Shown here piece after piece: positions 15,907 to 43,752 of a stretch of 61,879 nucleotides of DNA (the stretch's first letter is position 1; every line of letters starts with the position of its first letter). This stretch comes from an uncultured Bifidobacterium sp. (GTDB lineage Bacteria > Planctomycetota > Phycisphaerae > Phycisphaerales > SM1A02), in contig CAZKHO010000001.1 in the NCBI GenBank assembly GCA_964552505.1, positions 1 through 61,879 of the forward strand. The letters are read 5' to 3'. Both the position numbers and the translations under genes were made by a program. Below the pieces are notes generated by a model, which was not told the origin of the DNA, made no database searches, and saw only the letters and a list, made by a program, of their open reading frames with translations.

Positions 15907-15924
15907 GGGTTGCCCTGGTGTTGA

Positions 15925-17955: not shown

Positions 17956-18133
17956 GGCCGGAGCCCTCCGTGTGCGACGCGGCGTCCAGATCCTGCTCGG
18001 CCAGTCTGGCCAGCTCGTTGAAGGCGTCGTTGCCGTTGGCGTTGCGAGCCACCTTGGCCGACGCGCCGTACAGCGTGCCGGGACATGCGGCCAGCGCGCG
18101 CTCCACGGCTTCCCGGATCTGCGATTCGTTCAT
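17939..18133 (-). CDS. Small (64 aa) helical protein, first gene of the ATPase operon
   Basis: Overlaps the ATPase start by 17 nt. Plausible composition (MNESQIREAVERALAACPGTLYG...). No recognisable family. Confidence 0.45.
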   Translation of the reverse strand: MNESQIREAVERALAACPGTLYGASAKVARNANGNDAFNELARLAEQDLDAASHTEGSGHGPAR

Positions 18134-18239
18134 GGCGTGACCTGAACCTGAGCGATGGATGAAGCGACGGCCGGGACGGACGGCCGCACAAGACAGGAGG
18201 CGCCGAGTCTAGCGTGGGACGAGGTATCGTTGGGCGCCC

Positions 18240-18920: not shown

Positions 18921-18951
18921 ACGGACGGACTCGGCACCCGGAGAACCGAAC

Positions 18952-21180: not shown

Positions 21181-21190
21181 AGTATAGATG
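21181..21190 (-). promoter_or_regulatory. AT-rich 10-mer CATCTATACT (read on the minus strand), a candidate -10 region
   Basis: The identical 10-mer occurs on the plus strand at 54014-54023 upstream of the second STAND gene. It contains TATACT. It lies in the 63-bp divergent intergenic region. Confidence 0.3.
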
Positions 21191-21937: not shown

Positions 21938-22236
21938 TCGACCTCTACGCGGTGATCGGACTGCCCGGCCCCGTGCCCGCACATCGGGTGGAGGAGGCGC
22001 TCTCCAATCCCGCGCTGCGATCGGAGACCCGGGATCTGGTGGCCTTCGTGCTGAAGGACCCCCACCGCCGTGCCACCTACGACGCCGCCTGGCGCATGCA
22101 CATGCTGAGCGCGGCGGTGCGTCGAGAGTGCGGCCTCACCGAGACGGTGCTGTGGAAGCGGACGCCGCCCCTGCAGGCGCCCGCGGCGTGGGATCCGGCG
22201 TCCAAGGTGGAGTTGATGGTTCTGAGGGGTGGGTGA
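21934..22236 (+). CDS. Small J-like protein lacking the HPD motif
   Basis: ATGA overlap with the upstream gene. IDLYAVIGLPGPVPAHRVEEA...KDPHRRATYDAAW resembles J-domain helices I-II and the end of helix III, but no HPD is present. Confidence 0.5.
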   Translation: MIDLYAVIGLPGPVPAHRVEEALSNPALRSETRDLVAFVLKDPHRRATYDAAWRMHMLSAAVRRECGLTETVLWKRTPPLQAPAAWDPASKVELMVLRGG

Positions 22237-24000
22237 ATGACGGGAGGTGGACCACGCCAACGAACGCCATTCGTCGCGTGGAAACGCTCTCTCCGCGACA
22301 TCCTGAAGGATCAGCAGAACTGGAATCTGCATGCGCGAGAGAGGGAGATCCATCAGGTCTCGCAGCGAGCGATTCTTCCGAAGCGCATCAAACGGATGGC
22401 GCTGGACATCATCCTGGGGGTGCCGATCGGCCTGCTCGTCGTTCGCAGGACCGGCTCCGATGCGGCGAACCCGCGCCACCATCTGGTGGACGGACTGCTC
22501 CGATGCCTGCTGCTCCGGCACCTGTTCCAGACGCCTGACGGAGCGCCGGAGCACGCGGAATGGCCGTGCGTGGATCTCCGGAAGCTGTTCGGGAGCGGAC
22601 GCCGCCCACTCGATCGGGGACAGGCTCTTCGTCGCCTTCGCGACGAGGAACGGCTGGGGTCCGCCATCCTTCCAAAGGCTGCGGAACGCCCACGTGTCGG
22701 GCGTCTGGCGCTCTGGCGCCTGATGGGGAGCGAGCCGTCGCCGGAGGATCGTCTCCCGGTGGACCCCGCGCATGCACTCGGCTGGGAACTGCTGCGGGAG
22801 CGCGTTGCCGAATTCCCGGTGTACGTGGCGTGCCTCAACGGAACCCCGAGCCTGGCCGAACGCGACGCACGAGCGGATCGATGCCAGCAGTCACTCAACG
22901 TTCCAAGCCACCGGCGCTCACTGGGCGTGCAACGGAGGGGCTACCGCCTGCTCTGGGATCACTTCGAGGCGTCCCTGACATCCGCTGGCGCGGATCCGCG
23001 TGAAGTGAGCGCGTGGCTGGAAGTCTCGGGGAACAACGCAGAGGCGACGGCCTTTCTGCTCCGGCTGATCGCCGACCGCGCCGCCCCGGATGCCGAACCA
23101 TCGCAGCCGCGCATCATCGCCAAGGGGCTCTCCCCTGAGGACTGCGCAGCACATCTGCCAGCACTGGCTGCGGGCATTCGCGACACGCATGCGTTCTGGC
23201 AACGGCGGTGCCTGACCATCACCAAGCCATACTGGTACCTGGTGTCCGGATTGGCCCATCGCCTGGACGCGTTCAGCGCCTCGGAACTTGAAGGGCCGTT
23301 CACCGCCAGATTCTGGCGGATGCTCATGGCCGACATCCCCCAGGATCCCCGCGTCATCCGCTCGATGCTCGACGGATCGAGGCAATGGCCCGAGCCGCTC
23401 GTCGCCAACCCCCTGTCGTTCGTCCGACGCATGCTTGATTGGGCGCCGGAGCACTCGGAACAATCGCTGCGAGCCCTCCTGGACTTCCTGCTGTCCCCGG
23501 ATTCCGTGGCCGGGGGCACACCGCTCCCGCAGCACGCGCGCCCGGACGGCACGATGCAGCCCGCTCACGCATTCCTGCGCGAGGCGATGCGGAACGGGGA
23601 ATCCTGCGATCTGGACCACATCATTCCCGAGTCCGCCTTGCGGGAGTGCAAGGCCAGATCCGTGGTCCAGTCGCCGCTGAACAAGTGGGCGCTGCCTTCA
23701 GGCATGAACCGAAGCAAGAACGACCGCCCGCTGCCCGATTTCGCGCGCTCCTCCTACCTGACCATGCTTGAGCGCGGCCGCATCGATGACTGCCTGTCAC
23801 AATGGACCAACTCGCACGGATTCCACTGGCTTCCTCTCGAGGAGGGCGCTACGACATCGCAGCTGCAGACGCTTCTGGCGGACCGGAGCGGTTTCTTCTG
23901 GAAGAGGCTGGAGCGCCTGCAACCCAGCGACGCATCCGTGTCTCCCGGCCAGGTCCGCGGACTTCTGCTGGAAGGCCTCCGCGAACGCTGGGGCGGCTAA
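22237..24000 (+). CDS. Large protein with a C-terminal Cas9/McrA-type HNH endonuclease motif
   Basis: CDLDHIIPESALRE...SPLNKWALPSGMNRSKNDRPLP parallels D-x-DHI-x-P-x-S...NK-x-L...NR-x-K-x-D-x-P of Cas9-type HNH domains. The ATG directly follows the previous stop. The N-terminal 450 aa are unassigned. Confidence 0.7.
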   Translation: MTGGGPRQRTPFVAWKRSLRDILKDQQNWNLHAREREIHQVSQRAILPKRIKRMALDIILGVPIGLLVVRRTGSDAANPRHHLVDGLLRCLLLRHLFQTPDGAPEHAEWPCVDLRKLFGSGRRPLDRGQALRRLRDEERLGSAILPKAAERPRVGRLALWRLMGSEPSPEDRLPVDPAHALGWELLRERVAEFPVYVACLNGTPSLAERDARADRCQQSLNVPSHRRSLGVQRRGYRLLWDHFEASLTSAGADPREVSAWLEVSGNNAEATAFLLRLIADRAAPDAEPSQPRIIAKGLSPEDCAAHLPALAAGIRDTHAFWQRRCLTITKPYWYLVSGLAHRLDAFSASELEGPFTARFWRMLMADIPQDPRVIRSMLDGSRQWPEPLVANPLSFVRRMLDWAPEHSEQSLRALLDFLLSPDSVAGGTPLPQHARPDGTMQPAHAFLREAMRNGESCDLDHIIPESALRECKARSVVQSPLNKWALPSGMNRSKNDRPLPDFARSSYLTMLERGRIDDCLSQWTNSHGFHWLPLEEGATTSQLQTLLADRSGFFWKRLERLQPSDASVSPGQVRGLLLEGLRERWGG

Positions 24001-25169
24001 ACCCGCATCGCCGCAAAGCTCTCCCCCCGCCGCCCGATCTCGCGCTGCCGCTCCGCCGCGTCGCTTCCACCCGTGATCAGCCACAGGATGCGGCGCCGGC
24101 AGTCCAGCGTGCGCGCCCCCTGCCCGTCGGTCATGAAGATCACGCCGTCGATGCGCTGCGCACGTTCGTTCACCCACGCGATGGCGGGGTCGAAGTCCGT
24201 GCCACCGCCGCCCGAGGTCTCGGTGGGCGCCTGCCCCCGATAGTTCCAGACGCGCCCCACCTCCTGGTCGCTTTCCACCACGGTGATGGTGGCACCAGCC
24301 CGCCAGATGGCCCGCACCTCGCCGAAGAAGGCGGCCAGCTGCCGCGGCTCGATGGAACCGCTGGTGTCCAGCACCACCGCCAGATGGCTGAGGGGCTGCA
24401 CCCGGATCCCCGGCACCTTGCCGAACCGCTTGGAGGGCCGCTTGAGCGTGGTGCGGATGCGCGTGCGGCGGCTGCCGGTGCCGAACAGTCGGACCATGCG
24501 CCGCCAGTCTCGGGTGCCCGTGCCATGGGCCACGGTCTCCTCCACCACGCGCCGCAGATCGCCGGGGAGCCGGGCCAGCGCCTCGGCACCCGCGGCCTGC
24601 GCCCCCTGACGGACCACCTCGGCCGTCACCGCGGCCGCCGCGACGGGATCTCCCTCCGCCCAGATCTCCGCACCCTGCCCGCGCGTGTCCGATGACTGCT
24701 GCAGGGCCGTGGCCGCCGCGCCCGAGGCCAGACGCGCGTAATACCACTCCATGGTCTGGCCCCACAGGCGGTCGCCGAGTGCCAGCAGGCCAGGCGTGTC
24801 GATGCGGAGGGCGCTCGCAGGCAGCAGTTCCTCCTCCACCAGGCAGTTCACCGCCAGGTCCGCCGCCACGTTCATGCGCTCCGCATGTTCCAGCTGTCTG
24901 GCACGCTGCAGGTGCCCCAGCACCACATGCAGGATCTCGTGCTTGAGCACTCCAACGCGGTGCGCGTCGCTTTCCAGCGTGCGCAGCCAGAACACCGGGT
25001 TCACCAGAAGATGCAGCGCGCCGTTGCGGACGGTGACCGCCGCGGTCTCCACCTCCTCGGTCACCACGCGGATGGCGCAGAGCAGGACGTGCCCGTAGAA
25101 CGGGTTCACCAGCAGCAGCCGACTTGCCGCACGCTCCAGCGACGCCAGCACCGCCTGCCGGTCATGCAT
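23997..25169 (-). CDS. VWA-domain protein with an N-terminal HExxH putative metallopeptidase domain (DUF2201-like)
   Basis: HEILHVVLGH motif. MIDAS VVLDTSGSI. GGGGTDF and FMTDGQG motifs. Overlaps the MoxR gene stop by 8 nt. Confidence 0.8.
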   Translation of the reverse strand: MHDRQAVLASLERAASRLLLVNPFYGHVLLCAIRVVTEEVETAAVTVRNGALHLLVNPVFWLRTLESDAHRVGVLKHEILHVVLGHLQRARQLEHAERMNVAADLAVNCLVEEELLPASALRIDTPGLLALGDRLWGQTMEWYYARLASGAAATALQQSSDTRGQGAEIWAEGDPVAAAAVTAEVVRQGAQAAGAEALARLPGDLRRVVEETVAHGTGTRDWRRMVRLFGTGSRRTRIRTTLKRPSKRFGKVPGIRVQPLSHLAVVLDTSGSIEPRQLAAFFGEVRAIWRAGATITVVESDQEVGRVWNYRGQAPTETSGGGGTDFDPAIAWVNERAQRIDGVIFMTDGQGARTLDCRRRILWLITGGSDAAERQREIGRRGESFAAMRV

Positions 25170-26277
25170 GCCCCAGCCTCATGAGCGGCGCGTGCTCCAG
25201 CAGGAACGCCGTGACCTGCATGGTGGCGGCCTTGCGGAGGAACGCCTGGCGCGCGTCCGCCGGCAGGCGCTCCCACATGAGAAGCTCGATCAGGTTGCGC
25301 CGTTGCCGTTCCCCGACGGTGCCCATCCGGGACAGATGCGCGGCCAGCCGATCCAGCATCATCATCATGCGGTCCACGCGCGGGGCCGCGCCCGGTGGAT
25401 GCACCAGGGCCTCCAGCCGCTGCAGCAGCCGCTCCTCCGCCAGCCTCTCCAGCAGGTCCTCGGCGGACGGGAGCCGGGCCATCCCTCCCTGCACGAAAGC
25501 CAGGAAGCTTCCGGCCGCGGCCGGCTCGATGCACCCTGTGGCGATCATGGCCACCAGATCGTGGTGCGCCGCCAGATCCTCCAAACCACGCAGATGCTCG
25601 AAGAGGTTGGTGAGACTGCGCGGCGTGGTGCGCCCCGTGCCCACCAGCTCCGGATAGGCCAGCACGAACTCGATGCCCCGCGAATCCACCCCCGCCGACG
25701 CCGCCCAGGTGGCCCACGCCTTGGCGTCGAAGGTCATGGTGGCGTGCATCATGCGCGTCAGCAGCGCGTCGTCCATGGGCGTGACGGAGAACTCGCCGCC
25801 GTCGGGATTGGCCGTCAGGAAGATCTGCCAGCGCTCCGGCAGCCCCCAGTTGAACATGCGGCGGTCCTGCAGCAGCTGCATGATGCCGCGCAGGATCCGG
25901 TCGTCGGCGCGGTTCACGTCGTCCAGCAGCAGGATGCCTTCGCCCCCCCGCTGGTGCATCTGCTGCGCCCACTCCGGCATGACGTACATGGTGTAGTCGT
26001 CGGTGGGATCGTCCGGCGTGTTGGGGTCGATGACCTTGGGCATGCCCGTGAGGTCTCCCATCTCCTCGAACTGCGCAGGATTGACCTGCAGGAAGTTCAC
26101 CCGGCGCGCCGCGGCGAAGTCGCGGATGCTCTGAGTCTTGCCGATGCCTGGCAGGCCCCAGACGCAGAGCGGCACGGGCTGCAGGCCGCGGCGCATGCGG
26201 TCCACGTTGGCGTCGTAGACATGCGAGATCAGGCGGTGGTAGCGCTCGCCGGAGACTTCAGGGCCGTGCACGATCAT
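25162..26277 (-). CDS. MoxR-like AAA+ ATPase (AAA_5 type)
   Basis: Walker A VWGLPGIGKTQS. Walker B ILLLDDVNRADD. Sensor-like FLTANP. Confidence 0.85.
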   Translation of the reverse strand: MIVHGPEVSGERYHRLISHVYDANVDRMRRGLQPVPLCVWGLPGIGKTQSIRDFAAARRVNFLQVNPAQFEEMGDLTGMPKVIDPNTPDDPTDDYTMYVMPEWAQQMHQRGGEGILLLDDVNRADDRILRGIMQLLQDRRMFNWGLPERWQIFLTANPDGGEFSVTPMDDALLTRMMHATMTFDAKAWATWAASAGVDSRGIEFVLAYPELVGTGRTTPRSLTNLFEHLRGLEDLAAHHDLVAMIATGCIEPAAAGSFLAFVQGGMARLPSAEDLLERLAEERLLQRLEALVHPPGAAPRVDRMMMMLDRLAAHLSRMGTVGERQRRNLIELLMWERLPADARQAFLRKAATMQVTAFLLEHAPLMRLGHA

Positions 26278-26293
26278 GGGGGGCGTTCCTCGC

Positions 26294-29272
26294 TCAGGTG
26301 CGTCTTGCCAGATGGGCCAGCGGCCCGTCCGTGTCCACGGAGATCTCGATCCGGTCGGAGAGCCGCTCCAGCAGGCGCACGCTGTCGGCGGAGAGCGAGC
26401 GCACGTCGTGCAGCCGGATGTCGGTGAGCATCCTGCACGCCTCGATCTCCGGCGGGATCTGGTGGATGGCGGATCCGGACAGCGAGAGCGTGGAGAGCTG
26501 CGTGAGCCGCCCGATGGAGGCAGGCAGACGCTCCACGCCGGTGCGGTCCAGGCAGAGCGTCTGGAGCCCGGGCATGTCGCCGATCCAGTCCGGCAGCGAC
26601 GCGAGCGCGGTGCCGGAGAGGTCCAGCAGGCTGAGCGAAGGCAGGCTGCGAAGGCTGGCGGGCAGCTGGGTGATCCGGGTGTCCTCCACCTTGAGGCTGC
26701 TCAGCGCCGTGCACTGCCCCAGCGACTCGGGCAGCCGCTCCAGCGGACAACCGTCCAGACGGAGCACCTGCAGCTGGGTCAGCTGGCCGATCGAGTCCGG
26801 GAGATGCCCCACCAATGTGGTGCTCACATCGATCAGCTCGCAGGCGCTCCACGCGCCGATCCAATCCGACAGCGATTCCAGCGCCGAGCCCGCGGCCTCG
26901 AACTCACGGAGCCGCGTCCACCCTGCCGCCCAATCCGGCAGGTGACGGATGGGCGCGCGATCCAGCTTGAGCTCACGAAGCGGCACATGCCGCAGCCACT
27001 CCGGCACGGCGGTCAGCGACGTGCCCGACAGCGAGAACGCGTACTCCGCAGGCTTGGCCGGCGCTTCGTCGGCGTCTTCACCCTGGTCATCGTCGTCCTC
27101 GACATCCGGATCCTCCTCGTCCTCTTGCTCTTCGGAAGGATCCTCCGACGCGGATCCCCCGGGGATCGCCGCGTCGTCCAGATCCAGTTCGAAGGAATCC
27201 GTGTCCGCCTGGACCTCCAGTTGCGGCTCCTCCACGCCCATGGCGTCCAGGTCCAGCACCAGCTCCTCGGCGTCGGTGCCGTCGGGGTCCAGCACCAGTT
27301 CCTGGTCCTGATCGATCGTCAGCTCATGGCCGGCGCCAGCGTGGGTGCCAGAGCCATGCCTGCTGGGAGGCGCCGTGGGTCCGGTGCAGCCTTGCGCAAA
27401 GGTGCAGTTCTCCAGATCCACGCGGATGGGCACGTCCGTGTCCGCATCCACCCACGCCTGCGCCATCTCCACCCGCACACCTCGAAGCCCTTCGGCGCCC
27501 AGTGCGCGAAGATGCGACAGGTTCCACAGCCAGGCGGGGAGTTCCTGCACGCCCGACTCGCCCACCTCAAGCTCGCTCAGCGCGCCGGCCTGACGCAGCC
27601 ACGACGGCAGCCGGCCCAGCGCGCTCGGCACCTGCAGCTCCTTCAGGTGACCCACGCCTCCCTGCGGCGTGGGGAGGCTCTCCAGCATGGTGCCCTTGAG
27701 CGAGGTGTTCTCCGCGTACGGCAGCTCCGGGCAGTGTGCCAGCGGATTGCCGCTCAGCTTGAGGATGCTCCCTTCCGCCGTGGCGAACGCGGCCGCGGGC
27801 ACCTGCCCAGGGTCGATGCGGGTGATGCGGTTGTCCGCCAGCTCCAGGGTGTCCAGGCCGGACAGGTCGCGCAGGGCGCTGCCCACACCGCACAGCATGT
27901 TGCCGTCCAGTCGCAGGCGCCTGAGCTGGGGCAGGTTCCACCGCGCCGCCCCCAGCGACACCACGCCGCACTCCTCGATGAAGAGTTCCGTCAGGGCCGG
28001 GAAGACGCTGCCGTCCACCAGCCAGGCCGGCACCTGCGAGATGGGCACCTTCTCCAGGCGCAGACATTCGATCCACGGGCAGACGATGCCCGAGAGGTCG
28101 GGCAGCGCCATCGCGCCACTGATGCCCAGCGTGCCGTGCACCCTGGGCGCCAGGGAGCGCATGAAGTCGCGGTCGATGCGGGGACAGCGCTCGAAGCGGA
28201 CCGAGCCGATCGGCTCCACGTCCTCCACGTCGTCCCACTCCGTCACCTGCTGGCCGGCGCCCACCACCGAACCGCAGCGCTCGAACATGATCTCCAGCCG
28301 CTCCGGCTCCTCGCCCTGGGACTCGAGCCAGTCCACGGCGTCCGCACGCGCGTTCAGCAGCCTCTGGAACTCGCCCGGGCAGTCCACCAGCCGAAGCTCC
28401 TGCCACAGCTGCGGGGGAATCCACGAGTGGATGCAGTCGGCCATCCATTCCTCCAGCGGCCGTCCGTCTCCGGCGATCACCACCGACAGCGAACCGTTCT
28501 CCACCGTGTCCGGGTCGGCCAGGCAGCCCTCGTCCGTCAGTTCCAACTGGGTCTTCGTCATGCGCCGAAGCATCTCCAGCGGCACGATGCGCTGTCCCTC
28601 TCCAACCTTGTTGCCGGCCTCGATCACGTGCCAGGATGGAAGACACGCCAGCGCCTGACGGTGCCAGCCACCCTGCGACTCGTCCATGTGCAGGAGCGCC
28701 CACGCCATGGCGGGCACGGGCCCCAGCGTCGCCGCCACTTCCAGCGCCGCGCGCGGACCGCCGGCCTGCTCGGCGATCTGCAGGATCGTGCCGGCGTCCG
28801 GATGCTCGTCACGCTCGAACGCGGCCCGAAGTCCCCGACCGATCCGACCCCAGATGCCCCCGACATCCGCGATGGTTCCTGCCACCTCGACCCGGATCTT
28901 CCGGAACATCTCGTCCTCGTCGTCGCGCAGAGCCAGACAGGAGGCGGCGAGCAACTGCACCAAGTGGATGTCGGATCGTGCACCGAGCGCACGGATCTTG
29001 GCCAGTGCCAGCCGCGTCAGACCCTCGTCGCCAGAATCCAGCAGCTCCGCAATCTCCCGATCGGCCGCGGAGGCCTGCCAGTCCTCCAGCAGCCCCGGCA
29101 CGCGCCCGGCCTGCACCCACCGCCCCGGAGCCACGGCCAGCCGATCCTCCCCCAACAACTCTCCGCGCCGCGCCATGGCCCGGACTTCGCCAGCGGTGAA
29201 AGGCCCGCGCACGTCCTCCAGCAGTCGCCAGAGCCAGTACTTGTTCGCGGTGCCCTGCTGTTCCGGACTCAT
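26294..29272 (-). CDS. GYF_2 (DUF4339) domain plus leucine-rich-repeat protein with an acidic linker
   Basis: N-terminal KYWLWRLLEDVRGPFTAGEVRAMARRGELLGEDRLAVAPGRWVQAGRVPGLLEDW fits GYF_2. Two LRR blocks, e.g. LQVLRLDGCPLERLPESLGQCTALSSLKVEDTRITQLPASL. Acidic run EDPSEEQEDEEDPDVEDDDDQGEDADE. Confidence 0.8.
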   Translation of the reverse strand: MSPEQQGTANKYWLWRLLEDVRGPFTAGEVRAMARRGELLGEDRLAVAPGRWVQAGRVPGLLEDWQASAADREIAELLDSGDEGLTRLALAKIRALGARSDIHLVQLLAASCLALRDDEDEMFRKIRVEVAGTIADVGGIWGRIGRGLRAAFERDEHPDAGTILQIAEQAGGPRAALEVAATLGPVPAMAWALLHMDESQGGWHRQALACLPSWHVIEAGNKVGEGQRIVPLEMLRRMTKTQLELTDEGCLADPDTVENGSLSVVIAGDGRPLEEWMADCIHSWIPPQLWQELRLVDCPGEFQRLLNARADAVDWLESQGEEPERLEIMFERCGSVVGAGQQVTEWDDVEDVEPIGSVRFERCPRIDRDFMRSLAPRVHGTLGISGAMALPDLSGIVCPWIECLRLEKVPISQVPAWLVDGSVFPALTELFIEECGVVSLGAARWNLPQLRRLRLDGNMLCGVGSALRDLSGLDTLELADNRITRIDPGQVPAAAFATAEGSILKLSGNPLAHCPELPYAENTSLKGTMLESLPTPQGGVGHLKELQVPSALGRLPSWLRQAGALSELEVGESGVQELPAWLWNLSHLRALGAEGLRGVRVEMAQAWVDADTDVPIRVDLENCTFAQGCTGPTAPPSRHGSGTHAGAGHELTIDQDQELVLDPDGTDAEELVLDLDAMGVEEPQLEVQADTDSFELDLDDAAIPGGSASEDPSEEQEDEEDPDVEDDDDQGEDADEAPAKPAEYAFSLSGTSLTAVPEWLRHVPLRELKLDRAPIRHLPDWAAGWTRLREFEAAGSALESLSDWIGAWSACELIDVSTTLVGHLPDSIGQLTQLQVLRLDGCPLERLPESLGQCTALSSLKVEDTRITQLPASLRSLPSLSLLDLSGTALASLPDWIGDMPGLQTLCLDRTGVERLPASIGRLTQLSTLSLSGSAIHQIPPEIEACRMLTDIRLHDVRSLSADSVRLLERLSDRIEISVDTDGPLAHLARRT

Positions 29273-30582
29273 GCGTGTTCCTCCTGAACTCGACGGCCAA
29301 GGAGGCCGCCAAGCGCCTGGGCAAGGCTACGGTCCTGCGCGCCCAGCACCACGCGCCCCAGACGCGGCAGCCGCGCCAGCGTGTCCAGGCCTTCATCCAC
29401 ACCCGCACCCGTCAGGCGAATCAGGCGGAGGCGTGCGCATCCGGCCAGCGTGCTCGGCAGCACAAGATGCCTGCATCCCCGCAACGAGAGCGTCTCCAGC
29501 GCACCGCAGCCGCCGATGCCGTGCGGCAGCTGGCGCACGGCCGTCCCGTCCAGCTGCAGCTGCCGCAGCCTGGGCCAGGTCACCGGCCCCGCCGGAAGCT
29601 GCTGCACCCGGGTGCCCGAAAGGTCGAGCGTCTCCAGCGTGACCACGCGCGCCAGCGACTCCGGCAGCTTCCGCAGGGGATTCCCGGCAAGGTCCAGATG
29701 CCGCAGGCGGGCGCAGCGATCGAGCGGCCCCGACAGCTCCTCCACCTGGTTCCAGCCCAGATGCAGCGACTCCAGGTGGCGGATCGCCTCCGCGTGGACC
29801 GTGGCCACGCGCGCACCCGTCAGGCGCAGCACGCGAAGCGCGGCGCGGCCCTCCAGTCCGGCGGGCAGCTCGTCCAGCGGATTGCCGTCCAGATGCAGCG
29901 TGTCCAGCGCCTCCGGAAGCCCCTGCTCCAGCGCAAGGACCTCGATCCGGTTTCGAGAGAGATCCGCGTGGCGAAGGCCGGTGCACTTGCGCAGGCCGAA
30001 GGCGTCCAGGCGAAGGCGGTTGCACGCGGCCCGAAGGGTGACCAGCTGCGGACAGAGCTTTCCCAGGCCGTCCAGATCCGTCAGACGGTTGCGACAGAGG
30101 TTGAGCGCGCGCAGCGAAGCGCCGCAGCCACGCAGGAGCGCCACCGGGAGTTCCAGCAGGCCGTTGCCGGAGAGGTCCAGCGACGCCAGCGCGGGAAGGT
30201 CGTGCGCCAGTTCAACCTTTCGAGAGAGGCTGCAACCCCGCAGAAAGAGCGACTGCAGCGAGGGCGGCAGCGGCAGCGGTCCCCTCCCAAGCGGAAGGCC
30301 CTCCAGCGCCAGCGACTGCAAGGGCAGCTGCGCAAGCCACCCGGGGATCTCCTCCAGACACCCACGCACGCGCAGCGAACGGAGTGCGCCACAGCCCTGA
30401 AGCCACTCCGGAAGATCCGGCCGTTCGCCCAGATCCAGCTCCAGCGACTGGAGCGCATCCGCGCCAGCCGGCGCGGCTCCGGACGCGGCGGCGCCCTGCG
30501 GCAAGGACCACCCATGCCGGACCCCGTCGCCGGGGCGCGCCAAGACCACCATCCAGTCCTGTCCGGAAGGGATGGTGGTCAT
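29269..30582 (-). CDS. Leucine-rich-repeat protein
   Basis: About 14 tandem LRRs, e.g. LRHLDLAGNPLRKLPESLARVVTLETLDLSGTRVQQLP. ATGA overlap with the downstream GYF-LRR gene. Confidence 0.8.
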   Translation of the reverse strand: MTTIPSGQDWMVVLARPGDGVRHGWSLPQGAAASGAAPAGADALQSLELDLGERPDLPEWLQGCGALRSLRVRGCLEEIPGWLAQLPLQSLALEGLPLGRGPLPLPPSLQSLFLRGCSLSRKVELAHDLPALASLDLSGNGLLELPVALLRGCGASLRALNLCRNRLTDLDGLGKLCPQLVTLRAACNRLRLDAFGLRKCTGLRHADLSRNRIEVLALEQGLPEALDTLHLDGNPLDELPAGLEGRAALRVLRLTGARVATVHAEAIRHLESLHLGWNQVEELSGPLDRCARLRHLDLAGNPLRKLPESLARVVTLETLDLSGTRVQQLPAGPVTWPRLRQLQLDGTAVRQLPHGIGGCGALETLSLRGCRHLVLPSTLAGCARLRLIRLTGAGVDEGLDTLARLPRLGRVVLGAQDRSLAQALGGLLGRRVQEEHA

Positions 30583-30622
30583 GGCGCTGCCGGAATCACA
30601 TGGGCATGCGGACCGTGCGCGT

Positions 30623-33600
30623 TCAGACGGTCTCGTGCTTCTGGCTCCACCAGAGCCAGTTGCAGAAGCCGTCCACCGTCACGCCCCACTCGCCGTGGAT
30701 CAGCGCGCGAAGCTCGCCGCTGGTCAGCCAGTTGAGCATGACCTGCATGGACCGGTCGTCCACGCTGTCGCGGCCCTGCACGTTGCGGATGAGCCCCGTG
30801 GACGCCTTCGAGAGGCCCGCAGGCTGCAGACCCGCAGGCACCGCCCAGCTCAGCCGGTGACCGTCACCTTCGCGCTCGAAGCGCACCGAGCCGCGGATGG
30901 ACTTGGGCAGCGCGCCGTCGGCCAGCCCAGGCCCCACCACGAGCATGCGGAACAGCATCTGCGCCGCCACCCGATGAGCCTCGGCCTGCGGAACGTCCAG
31001 GGCCGCCGCGAACATCATGGCGCAGCGCCACAGGCGCTTCTGGTTGGCCAGAGCGATGGGATAGTCCTGATACTCCTCGTCGCGCTGCGCCAGCATGTGC
31101 GCCACGTAGGCCTTGGCCTCGGGGTGCGCCGCCAGGTGCAGCGGATCCAGCACGCGACGAAGCAGCGCGCTCACGGGTCCGCCACCCGCAGGCGCTGGGC
31201 CGGCAGGACCGGCGTCCGGCTGCGAATCCACCAGCAGGCGGGTCAGCAGGTTGCGGCCACCCTTCACGGACTGGAGCGCACGATCCAGCGGACGGTCCGC
31301 CTCGCAGCGGTCGATGAGCAGGCGGAACATGTCCTCCTTGGCCACGCTGTCGCGGGCCTCGGCGCCAGGCACGTACGCGCCCGCCGAGTGGTAGCGGTCC
31401 GCCGCGTCCACCACGCGATCCAGCGCGGGAGGATTGCGGAGGTCGCGCACCCGCTCCACCACCGGACCACGGGCTTCGCGGTTGCCCAGCAGCGCCTCGA
31501 AGAAGCGCACCTGACCGCTGCCGATGAGGGCGTCGATGAGCTCGTCGTTGACGCTCTCGGCCAGCTGCTGACCGGGCAGGCGATGACAGAACTCCGCGAA
31601 GATCATGACGGCGGCCTGCTCGCCCGCCGTGTCGGAGCCCACGTTGGTGTCCATGGCCAGACGCAGCGCGGACATCTTTCGGGCGAACGGCACCGAATCG
31701 CCGTCGCGGGCGCTGGTCTCGATGCGCTCCGGCGAGAGCTCCACGGCCTGACGCACGGACGCCGGCACGCGGCCCAGGCGCTCCAGCGCGTGGCTGAGCA
31801 CGCCGGGATCGCCGCTGGCGATGGCCTCCAGCACGATGGAGGTGCGGTCACCCGACTGCACGTCCACCTTGGCGCCGCTCTGGATCAGCAGGTCGGCCAC
31901 CTGCTTGTGGCCCATGCGGTAGGCGAGGTGGATGGGTCGGATGCCGTGTCGCGAGGCCTTGTCCAGATGATCCGGAGCGCGTCGCAGCAGCTCCTCCACC
32001 ATCTTCTTGGCTTCCTCGTCGAAATCCGCGGCCACGCGCACCGCGGCCATGAGCGGCGTGACGCCGTCGTGGGTGGCGCGGAAGTGGTCCGGCGTGAGGC
32101 GGCATCGGCGGCCAGCCAGCTCCATGGCCGAGCCGTGACCCGTGCTGGCCAGCACGAACACCAGATTGCGACCCAGCGTGTCCGGCATCATGTCGAACGA
32201 GCGCTGACCGAACCATTCGACGGAAACCGGATCGTCGGTCAGCGCCTTCAGGAACAGGCTGCGGCGGCGGGAGATCTCCTCCGGAGCCAGTCGGGTCCGG
32301 GCCGAGCCGGCCACGAACGGACGAAGGAAGCGCTCCAGTTCCAGATGCAGCGCGGGACGGCCGAAGTCCGGCAGGCGCCCGGCCTGGGCCTGCGACCGCA
32401 TCCGCTCACGCAGCGACTGCGCCACCTCGGCGTCCGGGCGGCCGGTGATCTCGATGGCGGGCTGGTTGTTGCCAGGATCGCGGCTGACCCAGAAGGTGAA
32501 CGCCTCGCGGCACTTGAAGGCCTTCTCCCAGAGCTTGCGGTCGTAGCCGCCCACTTCGGGCATGGCCTGGTCCAGCTGCTCCAGCGCACCACGGTCGAAT
32601 TCCTTGATGAAGGTGCCGTAGAGCAGCTCCTCGAACTCGCCGGCGTTGTCGGTGGCCAGCACCGTCTCCAGCCGGTTGTCGCCGCGACGGCCACGCCCCT
32701 TGGGGCGGCGGCGCGTCAGCAGGTCGTACTCGCTCTTGATCAGCGGATCGGCAAGGTCCTCGGCCAGCACACTGGCGCCGGACTGCAGGCGCTCGGGCGC
32801 CACTTCCGCACCCTGGTCCAGCAGCAGCTTGAGCGGCGACGGCGCAAGCACGGCGGCGCCGAAGCCCGCGTGGACGCGGGTCTCGGCCAGCAGCAGCACG
32901 TCCAGAGCGATGTACGCCAGTGTGGAGAGCATGGAGGCGCGCTCCTCGCCGGTGGCGCTGCGCTGCAGCACCTGGAGCGCCTCGCGGACGCCGGACTGCT
33001 CTCCGGGACGGTGACAGAGGATCTGCACGGTCGCGTCCAGCATGGCGCGCTCGGAGGCGCCGCGGCCGGTGTTTGCGATGGAACGCGACACGGCCTGCAG
33101 GAACTGCTCCGCGTACTGGTTGGGCTGGGCCGCGGTGGCCTGCGACAGCAGGCGCCGCAGCGCAACGCGCAGGCGGCGACGGAAGGTGTCCGGCAGCGCG
33201 CGGGCGCCCCGGGTGAGACGGAGCGACCAGCCCGACATGGGCTCGCGCTTCATCACCATGCGGCGGAGGCGGTTGGCCAGGGTGGCCGAGCGGCCTTCAC
33301 CCTCGGGCTCCTCGTGACCCACGGCCATGCGCACGATCGACACCATGTCGTCGCCGCGCTCGAGCAGGCTGCTGCCCCACTTGAGGTCGTTGCGACGCTC
33401 CCAGGACTCGATGCGCTTGCCGCCGGCGTAGGCCAGATCGAGCACGCTCTCGAACTTCCACAGGAAGTCGATCTCGCGACGAGCCACGCTGATGGCCGCG
33501 CCCACGCCCTGGATCTGGTCCAGGATCTTGCGGCTCCAGTCCTCGCACTTCTCGAAGTTGAGGCCCGGGAGCCGATTCCGGCTCTCCAGCATCTCGCTCA

Positions 33601-34180
33601 GCAGCCAGTAGCCGTAGGCGATCTCCTCGCCCGACGGGGCGTCCGCCGCGGTGGCCGGGTGCACCAGCTCGCGCACGGAGCGGTCGAACTCGCCCAGCAC
33701 CACGCAGCGCAGCAGCGCCGACGAGGCGCCGTGATGGCGCGTGATGGTGAGGAACTCCTCGCCGCAACGACGCAGGCGCTCGCGAAGGCCGTTGGCCGGC
33801 TCGCTGAACACCAGCAGCGGGTGCACGCGCGCGCCCTCGGCGTCGGCGTCCACCATCAGGTGACGCAGCTGCAGGTCGCGGAACGGATCCGATCCCTTCT
33901 CCGCCAGACGGAAGAGATGGTCGTAGAGCGCCATCGCATGGTCGGTGTTGCCGAAGCGATCCGCACGATTGAACGGCGCACCCTGCGCGTGCACCATGTC
34001 GCAGCCGTACTCGTCGAAGGTCACCAGGAACAGGCTCCGCCACGTGTCCGACCGCTCCGGCGTGGCAAGGCTGGTGGTCTCAAGCCACTGGGTCGCTGCG
34101 CTGAACGCCTTCGTCAACTCGCCGCGGCGCACGTGCTTGAGGTACAGGTCGAGGAACCGTGTTTCTTCTGGCGTGGGCAT
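30623..34180 (-). CDS. 1185-aa protein with central ankyrin repeats; the rest is unassigned
   Basis: Ank-like HDGVTPLMAAVRVA...RHGIRPIHLAYRMGHKQVADLLIQSGAKVDVQ. Normal composition throughout. The opposite-strand ORF 30572..34297 is an Arg/His/Gln/Gly-rich shadow. Confidence 0.75.
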   Translation of the reverse strand: MPTPEETRFLDLYLKHVRRGELTKAFSAATQWLETTSLATPERSDTWRSLFLVTFDEYGCDMVHAQGAPFNRADRFGNTDHAMALYDHLFRLAEKGSDPFRDLQLRHLMVDADAEGARVHPLLVFSEPANGLRERLRRCGEEFLTITRHHGASSALLRCVVLGEFDRSVRELVHPATAADAPSGEEIAYGYWLLSEMLESRNRLPGLNFEKCEDWSRKILDQIQGVGAAISVARREIDFLWKFESVLDLAYAGGKRIESWERRNDLKWGSSLLERGDDMVSIVRMAVGHEEPEGEGRSATLANRLRRMVMKREPMSGWSLRLTRGARALPDTFRRRLRVALRRLLSQATAAQPNQYAEQFLQAVSRSIANTGRGASERAMLDATVQILCHRPGEQSGVREALQVLQRSATGEERASMLSTLAYIALDVLLLAETRVHAGFGAAVLAPSPLKLLLDQGAEVAPERLQSGASVLAEDLADPLIKSEYDLLTRRRPKGRGRRGDNRLETVLATDNAGEFEELLYGTFIKEFDRGALEQLDQAMPEVGGYDRKLWEKAFKCREAFTFWVSRDPGNNQPAIEITGRPDAEVAQSLRERMRSQAQAGRLPDFGRPALHLELERFLRPFVAGSARTRLAPEEISRRRSLFLKALTDDPVSVEWFGQRSFDMMPDTLGRNLVFVLASTGHGSAMELAGRRCRLTPDHFRATHDGVTPLMAAVRVAADFDEEAKKMVEELLRRAPDHLDKASRHGIRPIHLAYRMGHKQVADLLIQSGAKVDVQSGDRTSIVLEAIASGDPGVLSHALERLGRVPASVRQAVELSPERIETSARDGDSVPFARKMSALRLAMDTNVGSDTAGEQAAVMIFAEFCHRLPGQQLAESVNDELIDALIGSGQVRFFEALLGNREARGPVVERVRDLRNPPALDRVVDAADRYHSAGAYVPGAEARDSVAKEDMFRLLIDRCEADRPLDRALQSVKGGRNLLTRLLVDSQPDAGPAGPAPAGGGPVSALLRRVLDPLHLAAHPEAKAYVAHMLAQRDEEYQDYPIALANQKRLWRCAMMFAAALDVPQAEAHRVAAQMLFRMLVVGPGLADGALPKSIRGSVRFEREGDGHRLSWAVPAGLQPAGLSKASTGLIRNVQGRDSVDDRSMQVMLNWLTSGELRALIHGEWGVTVDGFCNWLWWSQKHETV

Positions 34181-34357
34181 GTGGATCTTTCTTCTCTTCT
34201 GCCGATGGGTCTTGCGATGCGCGAATCGATCGAACGACGAGCCTTGGGCCCCTGGGCGCCACGAGCGGATCGGGCGTCCCGAGGGCGCGGATACTAGCGG
34301 GCCTTCGCGCGTGCCGCCGCACGAAGGACGACGGCCACGGGGGCCGGAAGCGTCATG

Positions 34358-37354
34358 TCAGGCCGCACCTTCGCTGCCCCCCAGCGCGGAGGCCGTCCAG
34401 CGGATGTCGCGAAGTTCCTGAAGGGCCCGCTCCACACGCGCCGCATCCTCGAATTGACCGTTTTCACGCAAGGCCGTGTATCGGGTCGAAAGGCTGTTCA
34501 GAAGCGTGTTGGCGGACCGCCAGATGCTGCCCACGGTCTCTGCCTGAAGGGGCGGCATGCCCGCAAGGAGACCACCGTGCACCCCCAGCCATCGCTGCAC
34601 CGCCTCACGGAGCTCGGGCGTGACACCGGCGCCAACGGGAGTCACGGGCGGCTCATAGGGCTTCGAGGTTGAGTTGCTGGCAGCGGCCGCCGCCGGCATC
34701 TCCATGGGCATGCGGATGCTGAACACGCGCTCCAGCTCGGCCCGAGAATCGGCCAAGGCCGGCACACCCTTGACCAGGACCTTGCAGATGGCGGCCTGAA
34801 GCACTGGGTCCGCAGCCAGGCCGTCGAAACCATGCTTGCCGAAGGAGGTCAGCACGGCGCCGTCCACGCCGGCAAACCGCATGATCTCGCTCTCGAAGAG
34901 CGCACCCGAGAGCGCCGCTCCCGGCTGACGGAGCGACTCGTCCATCTCCTTCTCCAGTTCGCGCATGAACCCGTGCAGGTGCGTCCTGGCGCCCTCGGAG
35001 CCGCGTGACCCGGGCACACCACCCATGGAGCCCAGCGATGCCGCGGCCGGAGCCGGCGAGCGGGACGCCAGCCACTCCAGGCAGCACGCGACGAACTCGC
35101 GGATGAACGGAGCGCGCATCTGGATGGCGGCCAGCGCGATCTCCGGGTTGGCGCGAGCCAGGAACGGGCCGGTCAACTCCACCATCTCGTGGCCCAGCTC
35201 GCCGCCCTGCTCGTCCATCACCTTGACCTGCAGCCGCTGCGCCGCATCCACATGGGTGGCGCCGTCGAAGTCGATCTTGTCGCCCAGCTGCGTCCAGGTC
35301 TGCGTGGAGCTCCACGATCCCGGCGCGCTCTCGGCGGGCACCGCCTTGCACGTCACGCGGCGCTCGAAGGGCTGGCCCTTGGAGCCCAGGAGCCCGCGGA
35401 CCATGACCGGCGACCCACCATTCCACAGGCGCACCAGCAGCGCCTTTCCGGCCGCGATGCCCTCGCCCGCCAGGCGGAGTTCCACCCCGTCCGCATGTCC
35501 ACCCGCGCTGGCGCGCGTCACGCGATACTGAAGCGCAGGCTTGGCACGGGGACCGCGGGCGACATTGCGAAGCCACTCCACCTGCGTGGGATCCAGCCGA
35601 CCGGGGTCGGGCAGTCCGTACGGCGACATGGGACGCTGGTCGTGCAGCCGAACCACGTCCATGGCGGCGCGGACCACTTCCGGCGTGAAGCCACGGGAAT
35701 CATGATCGCCGCGAAGCATCCGGTAGGCCTGCTGGAAGTCGCCGCGTTCCGCGGCCTGGACGGCCGGATGGGCGGCCGGGGAGGCCGACCCGGCAGGATT
35801 GTCCGCGTTGATGCCCTTGTTCAACAGCGCATGGAGACGGGTCTTGGTCTCCCACGGCAGGGCGTGCGCAGCACCAAACTCGGTCTTCTGGATGATCTCC
35901 TCACCAAACTCGCGCAGTTTGGCACCGTCAGCCACCGGCGTCGGCCGCGCCAGATACCGGATCACCAGCAGCGCTGCGTCGGCGTAGTTGCGCTCGCGCA
36001 TGAAGGAACGGATCCAGAGCACGCGAACCTCTCGGAGCCACTCGCGCGCCGAGACGGGCAGCTTGTCCTCGGATCGCGAGAACTGCTGCAACTCCGGGGA
36101 CATGGCAAAGCCGTCGGCCCGAGGCGCGGATTCACCGGTCACACGGGCGCACACCTCGCGCGCCATCTCCTCGCGACTGCAGTTGTAGTGGAAGGTGGCC
36201 CAGGCCAGCATGAAGCGCACGGAGGCCGCCGCGTGATGTTGATCCGCGGCGAACTGCCAGTCATTCTCCAGCAGGCTGCGGCCCGCCTCATAGATCTCTC
36301 GGATGCGCGCATCCGCCTCCTGCTCGCTGGCCGGCACCTTGGACGGCGTTCCGGCGACCGGGGCCGCTGCCGGAACGAACACGCCGGCATTGGGAGTGAA
36401 GCGCGCGTGGTAGCGGACCAGCGCGTGGAGATACGTCGCCGCCACAGCGGGGCGGTACTTGGAGCCCACCGGACTCTTGTCCCAGGCTTCCGCCAGGAGC
36501 GTGATGGCGTCACCCAGCCACTCGTCGCGCTCCAGTTTCAGATCCACCGACGCCAGGATGGCGAGCGGGTCCAGCGTCTCGCCAAAAACCTTCTTGGCCT
36601 GGTCGAAGCACCGATCCGCCTCCGTCCGCGCGCTGAACTTCTGCGGCGAGCCCTCGCCGGCGTGCCTGAAGATGGCCCGCCACGCAAGTCCGCGTGCGTA
36701 CCAGCCCCATCCCGCGGCGTCACCACTGGTGGTCTTGTCAGCAAGCTTCTCGCCGATCAGCCCGGCGATGAGCGCCTTGGGCTCCGGAATGCCGCGGAGC
36801 GCGGTCTCCGCCTCGCCCGTCAGACGCGCGACGGCCGCCCGGCGGATCGTGGCGTAGTGGCCACCGTTCTCAGCCTGCGAGAATCCGAGTTCGGACGGGT
36901 CGGCGGAGAACTCCACTCCGACCAGTTCCATGAAGTTGGCACCGGCCTTGGACCAGATCTGGTGCTCCAAGCTTGTCATCGAACCACCCGCCGGAGGGCG
37001 GCCTCCAAAGCCCGCTGGAGAGCCGAAGCCCGTCGATCCGTAGGACGAAGTCGAAGAGGGCTTCGAGCCCCGGCCCGCCCGCCGCGCCACGATCAACGCC
37101 ACCACCACGCCCACCACCAGCGCCGCCACCAACGCCACGGGCAACGCCCACGCCGGCAGCGCGTCCACCGGAGCGGCCGCTGACGGTGCACCCTTGGCGC
37201 CCGCCGCCGGAGCCGCGGTCGACTGCGCCGCCCACGCAGCACCGACACTCACCAGGTAGGACAGCGCCGCGATCGATGGCGCCATGGCGCGTCCGGGCAA
37301 CATCCCCCGAAGGTGCATGCGGCCGGAAACTCGCCCGAAAGTCTTCTTGTTCAT
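34358..37354 (-). CDS. About 1000-aa single-pass membrane protein with a large predicted cytoplasmic domain, unassigned
   Basis: Start at MNKKTF (ATG at 37354). Signal-like segment, then about 25 Ala/Pro-rich residues, then TM ALPVALVAALVVGVVVALIV followed by ARRAGRGSK. About 870 aa of helical-looking sequence with no motif I recognise. Confidence 0.7.
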   Translation of the reverse strand: MNKKTFGRVSGRMHLRGMLPGRAMAPSIAALSYLVSVGAAWAAQSTAAPAAGAKGAPSAAAPVDALPAWALPVALVAALVVGVVVALIVARRAGRGSKPSSTSSYGSTGFGSPAGFGGRPPAGGSMTSLEHQIWSKAGANFMELVGVEFSADPSELGFSQAENGGHYATIRRAAVARLTGEAETALRGIPEPKALIAGLIGEKLADKTTSGDAAGWGWYARGLAWRAIFRHAGEGSPQKFSARTEADRCFDQAKKVFGETLDPLAILASVDLKLERDEWLGDAITLLAEAWDKSPVGSKYRPAVAATYLHALVRYHARFTPNAGVFVPAAAPVAGTPSKVPASEQEADARIREIYEAGRSLLENDWQFAADQHHAAASVRFMLAWATFHYNCSREEMAREVCARVTGESAPRADGFAMSPELQQFSRSEDKLPVSAREWLREVRVLWIRSFMRERNYADAALLVIRYLARPTPVADGAKLREFGEEIIQKTEFGAAHALPWETKTRLHALLNKGINADNPAGSASPAAHPAVQAAERGDFQQAYRMLRGDHDSRGFTPEVVRAAMDVVRLHDQRPMSPYGLPDPGRLDPTQVEWLRNVARGPRAKPALQYRVTRASAGGHADGVELRLAGEGIAAGKALLVRLWNGGSPVMVRGLLGSKGQPFERRVTCKAVPAESAPGSWSSTQTWTQLGDKIDFDGATHVDAAQRLQVKVMDEQGGELGHEMVELTGPFLARANPEIALAAIQMRAPFIREFVACCLEWLASRSPAPAAASLGSMGGVPGSRGSEGARTHLHGFMRELEKEMDESLRQPGAALSGALFESEIMRFAGVDGAVLTSFGKHGFDGLAADPVLQAAICKVLVKGVPALADSRAELERVFSIRMPMEMPAAAAASNSTSKPYEPPVTPVGAGVTPELREAVQRWLGVHGGLLAGMPPLQAETVGSIWRSANTLLNSLSTRYTALRENGQFEDAARVERALQELRDIRWTASALGGSEGAA

Positions 37355-37470
37355 CGTTGGTGGAGCCTTGGTGGATTCCTTCGTCGACCGTGCCAGGCGG
37401 CAGGTCGTGGGGATGGTACTGGTGCCTGCGGACCCCCGCAATCGATTCGCCCGGCACCTACGATGCTCGG

Positions 37471-43737: not shown

Positions 43738-43752
43738 CCCGGTCTTCCGGCG

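Follow-up and report, generated by a model that had tools for sequence, protein, structure and literature searches.

Pairs of a MoxR-type AAA+ ATPase and a protein with a domain of the von Willebrand factor A type (VWA) are widespread and are understood in only a few maturation pathways. In NorQD, the MoxR hexamer takes a finger of the VWA domain into its pore, and by hydrolysing ATP it remodels the linker between this domain and the rest of NorD (PMC13036017). Such pairs are also part of the MoxR-vWA ternary conflict systems, of the VMAP, iSTAND, iSTAND2 and TERNS3 types (Kaur, Burroughs, Iyer, Aravind 2020; Kaur et al. 2021; PMC7159879, PMC8195603). Here we describe a locus on contig CAZKHO010000001.1 (assembly GCA_964552505.1), which was analysed whole as a window of 61,879 bp with a G+C content of ~70%. 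Six closely packed, head-to-tail minus-strand open reading frames (ORFs; g1 to g6, 23997-37354) encode a membrane giant (g1), an ankyrin (Ank) giant (g2), two leucine-rich repeat (LRR) proteins (g3 and g4), a MoxR-type ATPase (g5) and a protein in which a zincin peptidase domain is joined to a VWA domain (g6; Table 1). The evolutionary core of this locus is a triad of LRR protein, MoxR and zincin/VWA protein, which is much more widespread than the giant-bearing operon. Neither the triad nor the operon was found described in PADLOC or in the literature searched, which covered some but not all journals, in agreement with an earlier note on this DNA that had recognised no described system in its composition. 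We tentatively read the operon as an LRR-scaffolded, MoxR-gated zincin protease for surveillance or defence.

A scan with a MoxR profile over one genome per species (185,579 species) returned 459 relatives. The best 80 of these 459 loci came from Planctomycetota, Myxococcota, Bacteroidota, Verrucomicrobiota and others, most being 40-47% identical to g5, and the Bacteroidota carriers include four cultured Chitinophaga species (C. eiseniae DSM 22224, C. qingshengii, C. fulva and C. varians, with the V-M-L gene order explained below) as well as Flavobacterium metagenome-assembled genomes (MAGs). By tblastn and ORF clustering, a DUF2201 partner was present in 50 of 75 loci, many of these loci being truncated, and LRR-protein clusters were present in 36 and 15 loci; Pfam identified 17 of the 27 large ORFs directly upstream of MoxR as LRR proteins. 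In 20 of the 35 genome loci that extended for 4 kb or more on each side, all three genes lay within 6 kb, and an independent metagenome set contained the triad in 16 of its 19 well-flanked loci. Four gene orders occur among the genome loci (with L for LRR protein, M for MoxR and V for zincin-VWA: L-M-V, M-L-V, M-V-L and V-M-L), and the metagenome loci comprised LMV (11), MVL (3) and MLV (2). The window order g4-g5-g6 is LMV, which is also the commonest order elsewhere, and in the window as in relatives the genes of g5 and g6 are overlapping or adjacent. That the three partners have been kept together through repeated reshuffling of their order speaks strongly for a functional triad.

The surroundings of the triad were compared on contigs encoding progressively more distant MoxR homologues (1,933 scored MoxR matches). 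On the P0006 contig and in L001 (MoxR 66-67% identical), a divergent UvrD-like helicase gene, a ~940-aa protein and a ~1160-aa Ank protein precede the core of a ~970-990-aa (GYF-)LRR protein, MoxR and DUF2201, and a convergent ~600-aa gene, a ~100-aa gene and a gene for a TerB-DnaJ protein follow. L002 (59%) keeps five genes, of the g1, g2, g4, g5 and g6 types, with different downstream flanks, while L003 and L004 (56% and 48%) keep the five but have three to four additional genes, TerB-DnaJ among them, that separate the Ank giant from the LRR gene; L010, a Planctomycetota MAG (56%), is arranged like the latter two. In L090 and L091 (64%) the giants have been relocated downstream of the triad and are still linked to it, the order being LRR, MoxR, DUF2201, TerB-DnaJ, a GmrSD_N protein, a g1-like giant and g2. 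Repeat and giant proteins have diverged far more than the enzymes, as shown by comparison with L001 (g1 26%, g2 34% and g4 31% identity against 66% for MoxR and 55% for the zincin-VWA protein).

Two loci with a 60% identical MoxR, L093 and L099, are without giants. Alignment of their large ORFs to the g1 and g2 profiles by hhalign was negative, and a reading of the large ORFs of L099 as divergent g1 or g2 homologues was rejected. The third component of L099 (5046-9926 on its plus strand) is a protein of 1626 aa in which a g4-like N-terminal region is followed by two WD40 propellers and C-terminal LRRs, and on its flanks are genes for a trypsin-like protease, a DnaJ protein and a GmrSD_N protein. 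Since the propellers have been inserted into this protein, the repeat module of the third component is interchangeable. The set conserved in the clade thus consists of a third component of the GYF-LRR type, MoxR, the zincin-VWA protein and TerB-DnaJ. Usually it also includes a GmrSD_N protein or, in the slot of the latter, one without assignment, and the giants are found in most but not all loci.

Where they are present, the giants lie no more than ~10 kb from the triad at MoxR identities of 48-67%, even as the flanks differ, and a linkage that outlasts rearrangement argues for selection. The comparison therefore supports the view that the g1-g6 region is a conserved functional neighbourhood and not a chance cluster. 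The earlier note had allowed that homologues of the giants and LRR genes might never co-occur with a MoxR-VWA pair, which is not the case. Its six-gene unit holds in so far as five of the genes are kept together, and has to be amended in that g3 is absent elsewhere, the giants are optional and the TerB-DnaJ partner lies beyond the region it delimited. The sensor-plus-remodeller system proposed there likewise keeps its conserved neighbourhood and needs other boundaries and membership, and its immunity or programmed-death part is still an inference, which the context favours.

The ORF calls exactly reproduced the layout first reported for the six same-strand genes, with an ATGA overlap at the g3/g4 junction (29269-29272), an 8-nt overlap at the g5/g6 junction (25162-25169) and remaining gaps of 16, 40 and 177 nt, the last of these between g1 and g2. 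A G+C content at third codon positions of 0.80-0.91 in the called frames supports the coding status of g1 to g6. In a crude scan inside the operon, neither sigma-70-like promoters nor minus-strand terminator-like sites were seen, and we can only infer that the six genes are co-transcribed.

Both LRR proteins match several Pfam LRR families (1e-15 to 1e-30; LRR_4 at 4e-30 in g3). The most acidic 40-residue window of g4 contains 22 Asp/Glu residues, and this acidic stretch is kept in the clade consensus. Hence the LRRs and the acidic linker of the original description stand, while the N-terminal GYF_2 domain assigned to g4 remained sub-threshold (E 0.0012; 19 bits against a cut-off of 25.8, with the isolated N-terminus), a weak GYF_2 match being seen also in one g4 orthologue. 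In relatives, g4 orthologues sit directly upstream of MoxR. The LRR partners of the Myxococcota type (L006, L014, L015, L017 and L019) show an apparent internal duplication in the alignment, the duplicated unit being a helical cap motif (...QGVELLRSL.D..L...LL.GVTW...) followed by LRRs; a proline-/lysine-rich linker joins the two halves at the place where the planctomycete clade has the acidic linker.

The g5 protein matches Pfam AAA_5 (2e-6; 28.2 bits against a cut-off of 22), as expected of the MoxR class, and contains the Walker A and B motifs noted before (GLPGIGKT and ILLLDD); GxxGxGKT, the Walker B DD and TANP are conserved among 75 loci of g5 relatives. Its AlphaFold model reached a predicted local distance difference test score (pLDDT) of 85.8, and the top Foldseek matches of this model were NorQ (9qh4, 9qh8) and CbbQ (6l1q, 5c3c), with a probability of 1.0, target-normalised TM-scores of 0.60-0.64 and 13-15% identity. 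The C-terminus of g5 is an additional helical region of ~190 aa, the nearest solved chain by sequence is the AAA domain of midasin, and no NCBIfam entry was matched. The g6 protein is composed of DUF2201_N (6e-16; 59.3 bits against 23.2) and DUF2201 (1.7e-14; 54.4 bits against 26.4), and the reported HEILH and DxSGS motifs are present as HEILHVVLGH and as DTSGS of the metal ion-dependent adhesion site (MIDAS). Among 50 members of the g6 family, conservation of the motifs KHExLHxxxxH and DTSGS..GGT..TDG is 90% or higher, and a sequence search found no solved homologue of g6. As the ATPase motifs, HExxH with a third His and the full MIDAS are all at least 90% conserved across the family, both enzymes, the MoxR ATPase and the zincin, are probably active. 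The HMMER check against Pfam that had been proposed thus confirmed AAA_5, DUF2201_N with DUF2201, the LRR families and Ank, and left GYF_2 below its cut-off.

The start of g1 is uncertain, being TTG 37441 (the longest ORF), ATG 37354 or M24 at 37285, which is the NCBI call (P0123, 975 aa). Hydropathy predicts a signal-like N-terminus, a short external stub and a single strong hydrophobic helix at about residues 66-92, which bears out the single-pass topology previously ascribed to g1, and the L001 orthologue has a matching topology (signal-like N-terminus and one transmembrane helix) by hydropathy. Beyond this helix follow ~900 residues without a known domain, and since basic residues come after the helix, most of g1 is probably cytoplasmic. 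No Pfam, NCBIfam or PADLOC entry was matched by g1, and its orthologues in L001, L002, L004 and L091 are 20-28% identical to it. The g2 giant is, as had been stated, recognisable only by its ankyrin repeats, Ank/Ank_2 being its sole Pfam families; all six g2 orthologues also carry Ank and no other Pfam domain, and among the orthologues of both giants no Pfam domain other than Ank was found. An FCNWLWW motif at the g2 C-terminus is kept in the alignment with its nearest relatives. A phmmer search of 1.84 billion representatives gave one full-length relative of g2 (P0128) and two fragments among the 150 matches listed, which were mostly generic Ank matches that may hide weaker true relatives. 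As the sole full-length relative among the matches listed is only 39% identical, g2 appears to be rare and close to an orphan among them. Exact-sequence look-ups found neither the MoxR protein nor the Ank giant of the window in the contig index. A word-indexed homologue search with g2 returned g2 itself and one weak Ank match, and a search with a concatenated g1 and g2 profile returned the window's own g1 alone, long Ank proteins filling the list of candidates. No g2 was seen away from the triad, although a metagenome scan anchored on three g2 sequences matched nothing and is thus a weak check. The third gene, g3, resembles the C-terminal LRR block of g4 at ~30% identity (BLASTP 7e-13); it is absent from the gene lists of every relative examined and was seen in the window alone.

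Three plus-strand genes converge on g6. The first of them, which like the rest of the trio lies outside the region covered by the earlier note, encodes a TerB and J-domain protein, and homologues occur near the module, in shifting positions, in L001-L004, L009, L010, L090, L091, L093 and L099. It overlaps by ATGA with a gene for a 100-aa protein whose translation has a J-domain-like N-terminus and which had no Pfam match; a gene of similar size (97-127 aa) adjoins TerB-DnaJ in L001-L004. The third encodes a 587-aa protein that occupies the slot of the GmrSD_N (DUF262) proteins of L002, L090, L091 and L099, which match PADLOC HEC-05, PDC-M55C and NsnA. The 587-aa protein matched neither Pfam nor PADLOC, was not significant against the GmrSD family by BLASTP and gave an hhalign probability of 2.8%, so that homology is unproven; it has GVPIG-like and DLDHIIP-like motifs in common with GmrSD_N proteins, and DGQQR is degenerate (VDGLLRC). 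Its position and motifs leave it as a possible GmrSD relative, either highly diverged or inactivated.

Upstream of g1 lie a superfamily 1 (SF1) helicase gene and a gene for a protein with GYF_2 and a trypsin-like serine protease, the protease part of which matches PADLOC RT-Protease_XI (2e-11). The weak GYF_2 is the one domain type common to g4 and this neighbouring protease. A trypsin gene lies near the module also on the P0006 contig and in L099, two of the relatives, and the one of the window is possibly an accessory gene of the module; a UvrD_C helicase was found at a matching place only in the two nearest relatives. Elsewhere in the window, an SMC/ABC-type ATPase gene and two small genes following it (14737-18129 in all) may form a Lamassu- or MADS-like defence unit, and two giants combine a NACHT/STAND P-loop with long tetratricopeptide repeat (TPR) arrays. 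The plus strand also encodes, at 18213-19434, a weak Peptidase_M50B-like protein followed by an Endonuc_Holl protein (archaeal Holliday-junction-resolvase-like, 4.8e-27) and, at 8675-10939, a subtilase (Peptidase_S8) with DUF4384, the latter within a same-strand run (4873-11529) without family assignments. The contig start clips a plus-strand tRNA, of which the 3' part remains at 1-53 (Rfam tRNA, 33.2 bits).

Table 1. Coordinates in the window of the operon genes, of their domains and motifs, and of other genes considered in the text.
Feature	Position	Strand	Description
g1	34358-37354	-	~1000-aa single-pass membrane giant; ORF call
g1 transmembrane helix	37079-37159	-	LPAWALPVALVAALVVGVVVALIVA, then RRAGRGSK; Kyte-Doolittle peak 3.08
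g2	30623-34180	-	1185-aa soluble Ank giant; ORF call
g2 Ank block	31856-32074	-	Residues 703-775; 2-3 ankyrin repeats; Pfam Ank 9e-8
g3	29269-30582	-	437 aa, nothing but LRRs; ORF call
g4	26294-29272	-	992-aa GYF_2-like and LRR protein, third component; ORF call
g4 GYF_2-like domain	29078-29239	-	N-terminal; followed by a region without family assignment
g4 LRR block 1	27473-28072	-	Pfam LRR
g4 acidic linker	27062-27355	-	Between the LRR blocks
g4 LRR block 2	26348-27040	-	Pfam LRR
g5	25162-26277	-	371-aa MoxR-type AAA+ ATPase; ORF call
g5 Walker A GLPGIGKT	26134-26157	-	Residues 41-48
g5 PAQFEEMGD motif	26053-26079	-	Family-specific
g5 Walker B ILLLDD	25900-25935	-	Residues 115-120
g5 TANP sensor motif	25795-25818	-	Conserved in relatives
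g6	23997-25169	-	390-aa zincin-VWA protein (DUF2201_N and DUF2201); ORF call
g6 HEILHVVLGH	24912-24941	-	Residues 77-86, in the DUF2201_N zincin domain
g6 MIDAS DTSGS	24354-24368	-	Residues 268-272, DUF2201 VWA domain
g6 MIDAS GGT	24192-24212	-	DUF2201 VWA domain
g6 MIDAS TDG	24117-24137	-	DUF2201 VWA domain
TerB and J-domain (DjlA-like) co-chaperone	21188-21937	+	Pfam TerB 3.6e-8, DnaJ 4.3e-7
100-aa protein	21934-22236	+	J-domain-like N-terminus DLYAVIGL
587-aa protein	22237-24000	+	In the slot of GmrSD_N proteins of relatives
SF1 helicase	~37441-39411	+	Divergent from g1; DEAD, AAA_30, UvrD_C_2; PADLOC C3a187 'NERD+UvrD' 5e-10
GYF_2 and trypsin-like serine protease	39393-40685 (start approximate)	+	Trypsin_2 5.8e-25, N-terminal GYF_2 2e-4
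734-aa SMC/ABC-type ATPase	15925-18129	-	PADLOC mad3 5e-21, LmuB 1.5e-13
Small gene after the SMC/ABC-type ATPase	15388-15924	-	No family assigned
Small gene after the SMC/ABC-type ATPase	14737-15387	-	No family assigned
NACHT/STAND P-loop and long TPR array giant	43735-49359	+	~1870 aa; STAND sensor-type architecture; possible N-terminal SAM-like domain, E 0.017
NACHT/STAND P-loop and long TPR array giant	54001-61245	+	~2410 aa; STAND sensor-type architecture

We propose that g4, g5 and g6 with its complete MIDAS would form a three-part machine. The LRR protein g4 would be the specificity or scaffold subunit and bind a putative protein ligand, with LRR (or WD40) surfaces supplying the specificity. 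The MIDAS site of the g6 VWA domain would hold g4, possibly via the conserved acidic linker, which is a candidate MIDAS ligand because such a site would hold an acidic ligand. For the steps that follow, NorQD is the sole mechanistic template of a MoxR-VWA pair, and by this analogy the g5 hexamer would grip the VWA domain and remodel the VWA-zincin linker with ATP. Remodelling of the linker would then turn the peptidase on or present its substrate, resulting in ATP-gated, ligand-dependent proteolysis. The giants would probably tether the module to the membrane, g1 as an inner-membrane anchor and g2 (helical, Ank) as a scaffold, and the TerB-J protein would probably link it to Hsp70. The two fast-evolving giants and the DjlA-like co-chaperone would be additions made in the window's own lineage, probably Planctomycetota, as would the GmrSD-type DUF262 protein in relatives and the trypsin-like protease in some loci.

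As to its role, we lean towards surveillance or conflict, sensing an invader or stress, over housekeeping maturation, without placing this beyond an even chance. This role is favoured because the third component varies in its repeats (LRR, or WD40 and LRR in L099), because divergence is much faster in the repeat and giant proteins than in the enzymes, and because the distribution is sparse, reaching distant phyla at ~45% identity (459 matches in 185,579 species genomes). It is further favoured because GmrSD_N neighbours recur beside the module, because g4 and the neighbouring trypsin-like protease have a GYF-type domain in common, and because the order of third component, MoxR and vWA protein parallels that of the ternary systems of Kaur et al. 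(PMC7159879, PMC8195603). The window itself adds to the case, since it holds two NACHT-TPR giants, an LmuB/mad3-like ATPase, a NERD/UvrD-like helicase, the GYF-trypsin protease and a Holliday-junction-resolvase-like endonuclease. A number of findings weigh against a conflict role, and many of them would be expected if the MoxR/zincin-VWA pair were instead a housekeeping assembly or processing chaperone that matures large repeat proteins into a membrane-associated structure with the J-protein and Hsp70, the LRR protein and the giants being its clients and not sensors. Every experimentally studied MoxR-VWA pair (NorQD, CbbQO and RavA-ViaA) is an assembly or maturation chaperone (PMC13036017 for NorQD), and a jumbo-phage pair of equal architecture is predicted to serve virion assembly with peptidolytic processing (PMC7824862). 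The zincin is always fused to the VWA domain and never exchanged for other effectors, as conflict systems typically do, and the conserved J-domain co-chaperone is equally compatible with proteostasis. Some pairs lie among housekeeping genes: L088 and L089 have a MoxR-DUF2201 pair without an LRR neighbour in such surroundings, and the L006 triad has metabolic genes and an RHS toxin on its flanks. In PADLOC-DB v2, g1 and g3 to g6 had no match and g2 matched PDC-M72A only via Ank (6e-5). The single-sequence AlphaFold model of g6 had a pLDDT of 39, and no usable model was obtained for g1, g2, g4 or g6. Nevertheless, vertical inheritance and slow evolution would be expected of a housekeeping structure, whereas here the putative clients show fast divergence (20-35% identity), differ in their repeats (LRR, or WD40 and LRR) and include giants that are dispensable in a sister lineage. 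The sparse distribution over phyla and the recurrence of defence-type neighbours (GmrSD_N and, in the window, STAND NTPases and the LmuB-like ATPase) also speak against it, and we consider this explanation possible but doubtful.

A different objection is that the operon is not one system at all, g1, g2 and g3 being unrelated neighbours that co-travel through close kinship and the triad alone being the functional unit. This would account for g3 being in the window alone and for the giants being missing from L093, L099 and all distant triads, and the 177-nt gap between g1 and g2 could hold a separate promoter. However, the giants are found within ~10 kb of the triad over the whole range of 48-67% MoxR identity despite changing flanks, stay linked despite inserted genes (L003, L004) and move across the triad (L090, L091), and the rare g2 was not seen off the triad, the g2-anchored metagenome scan that found nothing being a weak check, so that we regard this explanation as unlikely. 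Still less probable, and in our view improbable altogether, is a eukaryote-like effector cassette, in which the LRR, Ank and GYF proteins would be secreted or directed at hosts such as amoebae or algae and the MoxR pair and J-protein would be their chaperone or processing system. These three domain types are typical of eukaryote-interacting bacteria, and g3 and g4 gave partial matches to the Xanthomonas type III secretion system (T3SS) LRR effectors XopL, XopAC and XopAE and to SlrP; these NCBIfam scores were ~120 bits against cut-offs of 450-600 and covered LRRs only, for which reason a T3SS effector identity of the LRR proteins was rejected. Moreover, neither a signal peptide nor a transmembrane segment is present in g2 to g6, g1 is predicted to lie mostly in the cytoplasm, and no secretion-system genes were found in the window when its called genes were scanned with Pfam. 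Carriers of the triad also include free-living Chitinophaga and Flavobacterium as well as marine and freshwater MAGs.

One uncharacterised MoxR-VWA subfamily, with a zincin-bearing partner, is now tied to a dedicated LRR partner in several phyla, and the triad offers a concrete three-protein system for asking what MoxR-VWA pairs do. The operon context is also the first functional handle on the near-orphan giants g1 and g2. If the triad is truly a sensor-gated protease, LRR recognition would join the bacterial immune repertoire outside STAND and Roco proteins, with a MoxR-gated zincin as a new effector logic; in the case of an assembly machine, a hitherto unknown cellular structure built on LRRs would be indicated. 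Since cultured carriers exist, in the form of the four Chitinophaga species, either outcome is testable. More speculatively, and with doubt prevailing, the triad could be a cross-phylum family of innate-immune sensors in which an LRR receptor, analogous to the pattern-recognition receptors of animals and plants, licenses an ATP-gated metalloprotease, the window form being tethered by giants, coupled to Hsp70 and provided with GmrSD-like nuclease and serine-protease outputs.

Compared with known systems, the resemblance to FtsH- and Lon-type AAA+ proteases is one of functional analogy only, in that an ATPase is coupled to a peptidase, FtsH being a membrane HExxH zinc peptidase. Here, in contrast, ATPase and peptidase are separate chains bridged by VWA and MIDAS, the ATPase belongs to the MoxR clade and pore threading is not implied. 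With NorQ/NorD and CbbQ/CbbO (the CGN subfamily) the locus has in common the AAA+ fold and a MoxR hexamer acting on a VWA partner, but g5 has its extra C-terminal region, and NorD and CbbO have N-terminal regions of their own where g6 carries the HExxH zincin. No nor, cbb or carboxysome client genes were found in the window by Pfam scans of the called genes. A NorQD or CbbQO housekeeping identity, which the earlier note had named as a possible refutation, was therefore rejected, as identity is 13-15%, no NCBIfam entry is matched and the partner is of the DUF2201_N and DUF2201 type. Closer in architecture are the group 2.2 jumbo phages (Iyer et al. 2021, PMC7824862), which combine a MoxR AAA+ ATPase with a vWA co-chaperone bearing an N-terminal metallopeptidase. 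The locus differs from them in its cellular setting and in having an LRR partner, giants and a J-protein, the role proposed for the phage pair being virion assembly. Phage genomes do contain DUF2201-type proteins, the best of which are 24-34% identical over 29-42% of g6; since these matches are distant and partial, a phage origin was rejected, and Pfam scans of the called genes showed no phage structural genes in the window.

The MoxR-vWA ternary conflict systems have, like the triad, a variable and fast-evolving third component followed by MoxR and then by a vWA protein to which an enzymatic domain is joined. Their known effectors include peptidases, and NTP-dependent threshold setting has been predicted for them. 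On the other hand, the third component here is built of LRRs, or of WD40 and LRRs, and contains no VMAP, iSTAND, iSTAND2 or TERNS3 module by Pfam; the VWA domain is of the DUF2201 family; and neither an LRR third component nor DUF2201 is mentioned in the two papers of Kaur et al. (PMC7159879, PMC8195603). Where those systems vary their C-terminal effectors via vWA-L, the triad has an invariant N-terminal zincin, and in place of their shared EAD/Death-like adaptor coupling, which was not encountered here, the one shared domain is the weak GYF_2. In conclusion, the triad differs from the ternary systems in the identity of its third component and of its effector, yet it is these systems that it works most like.

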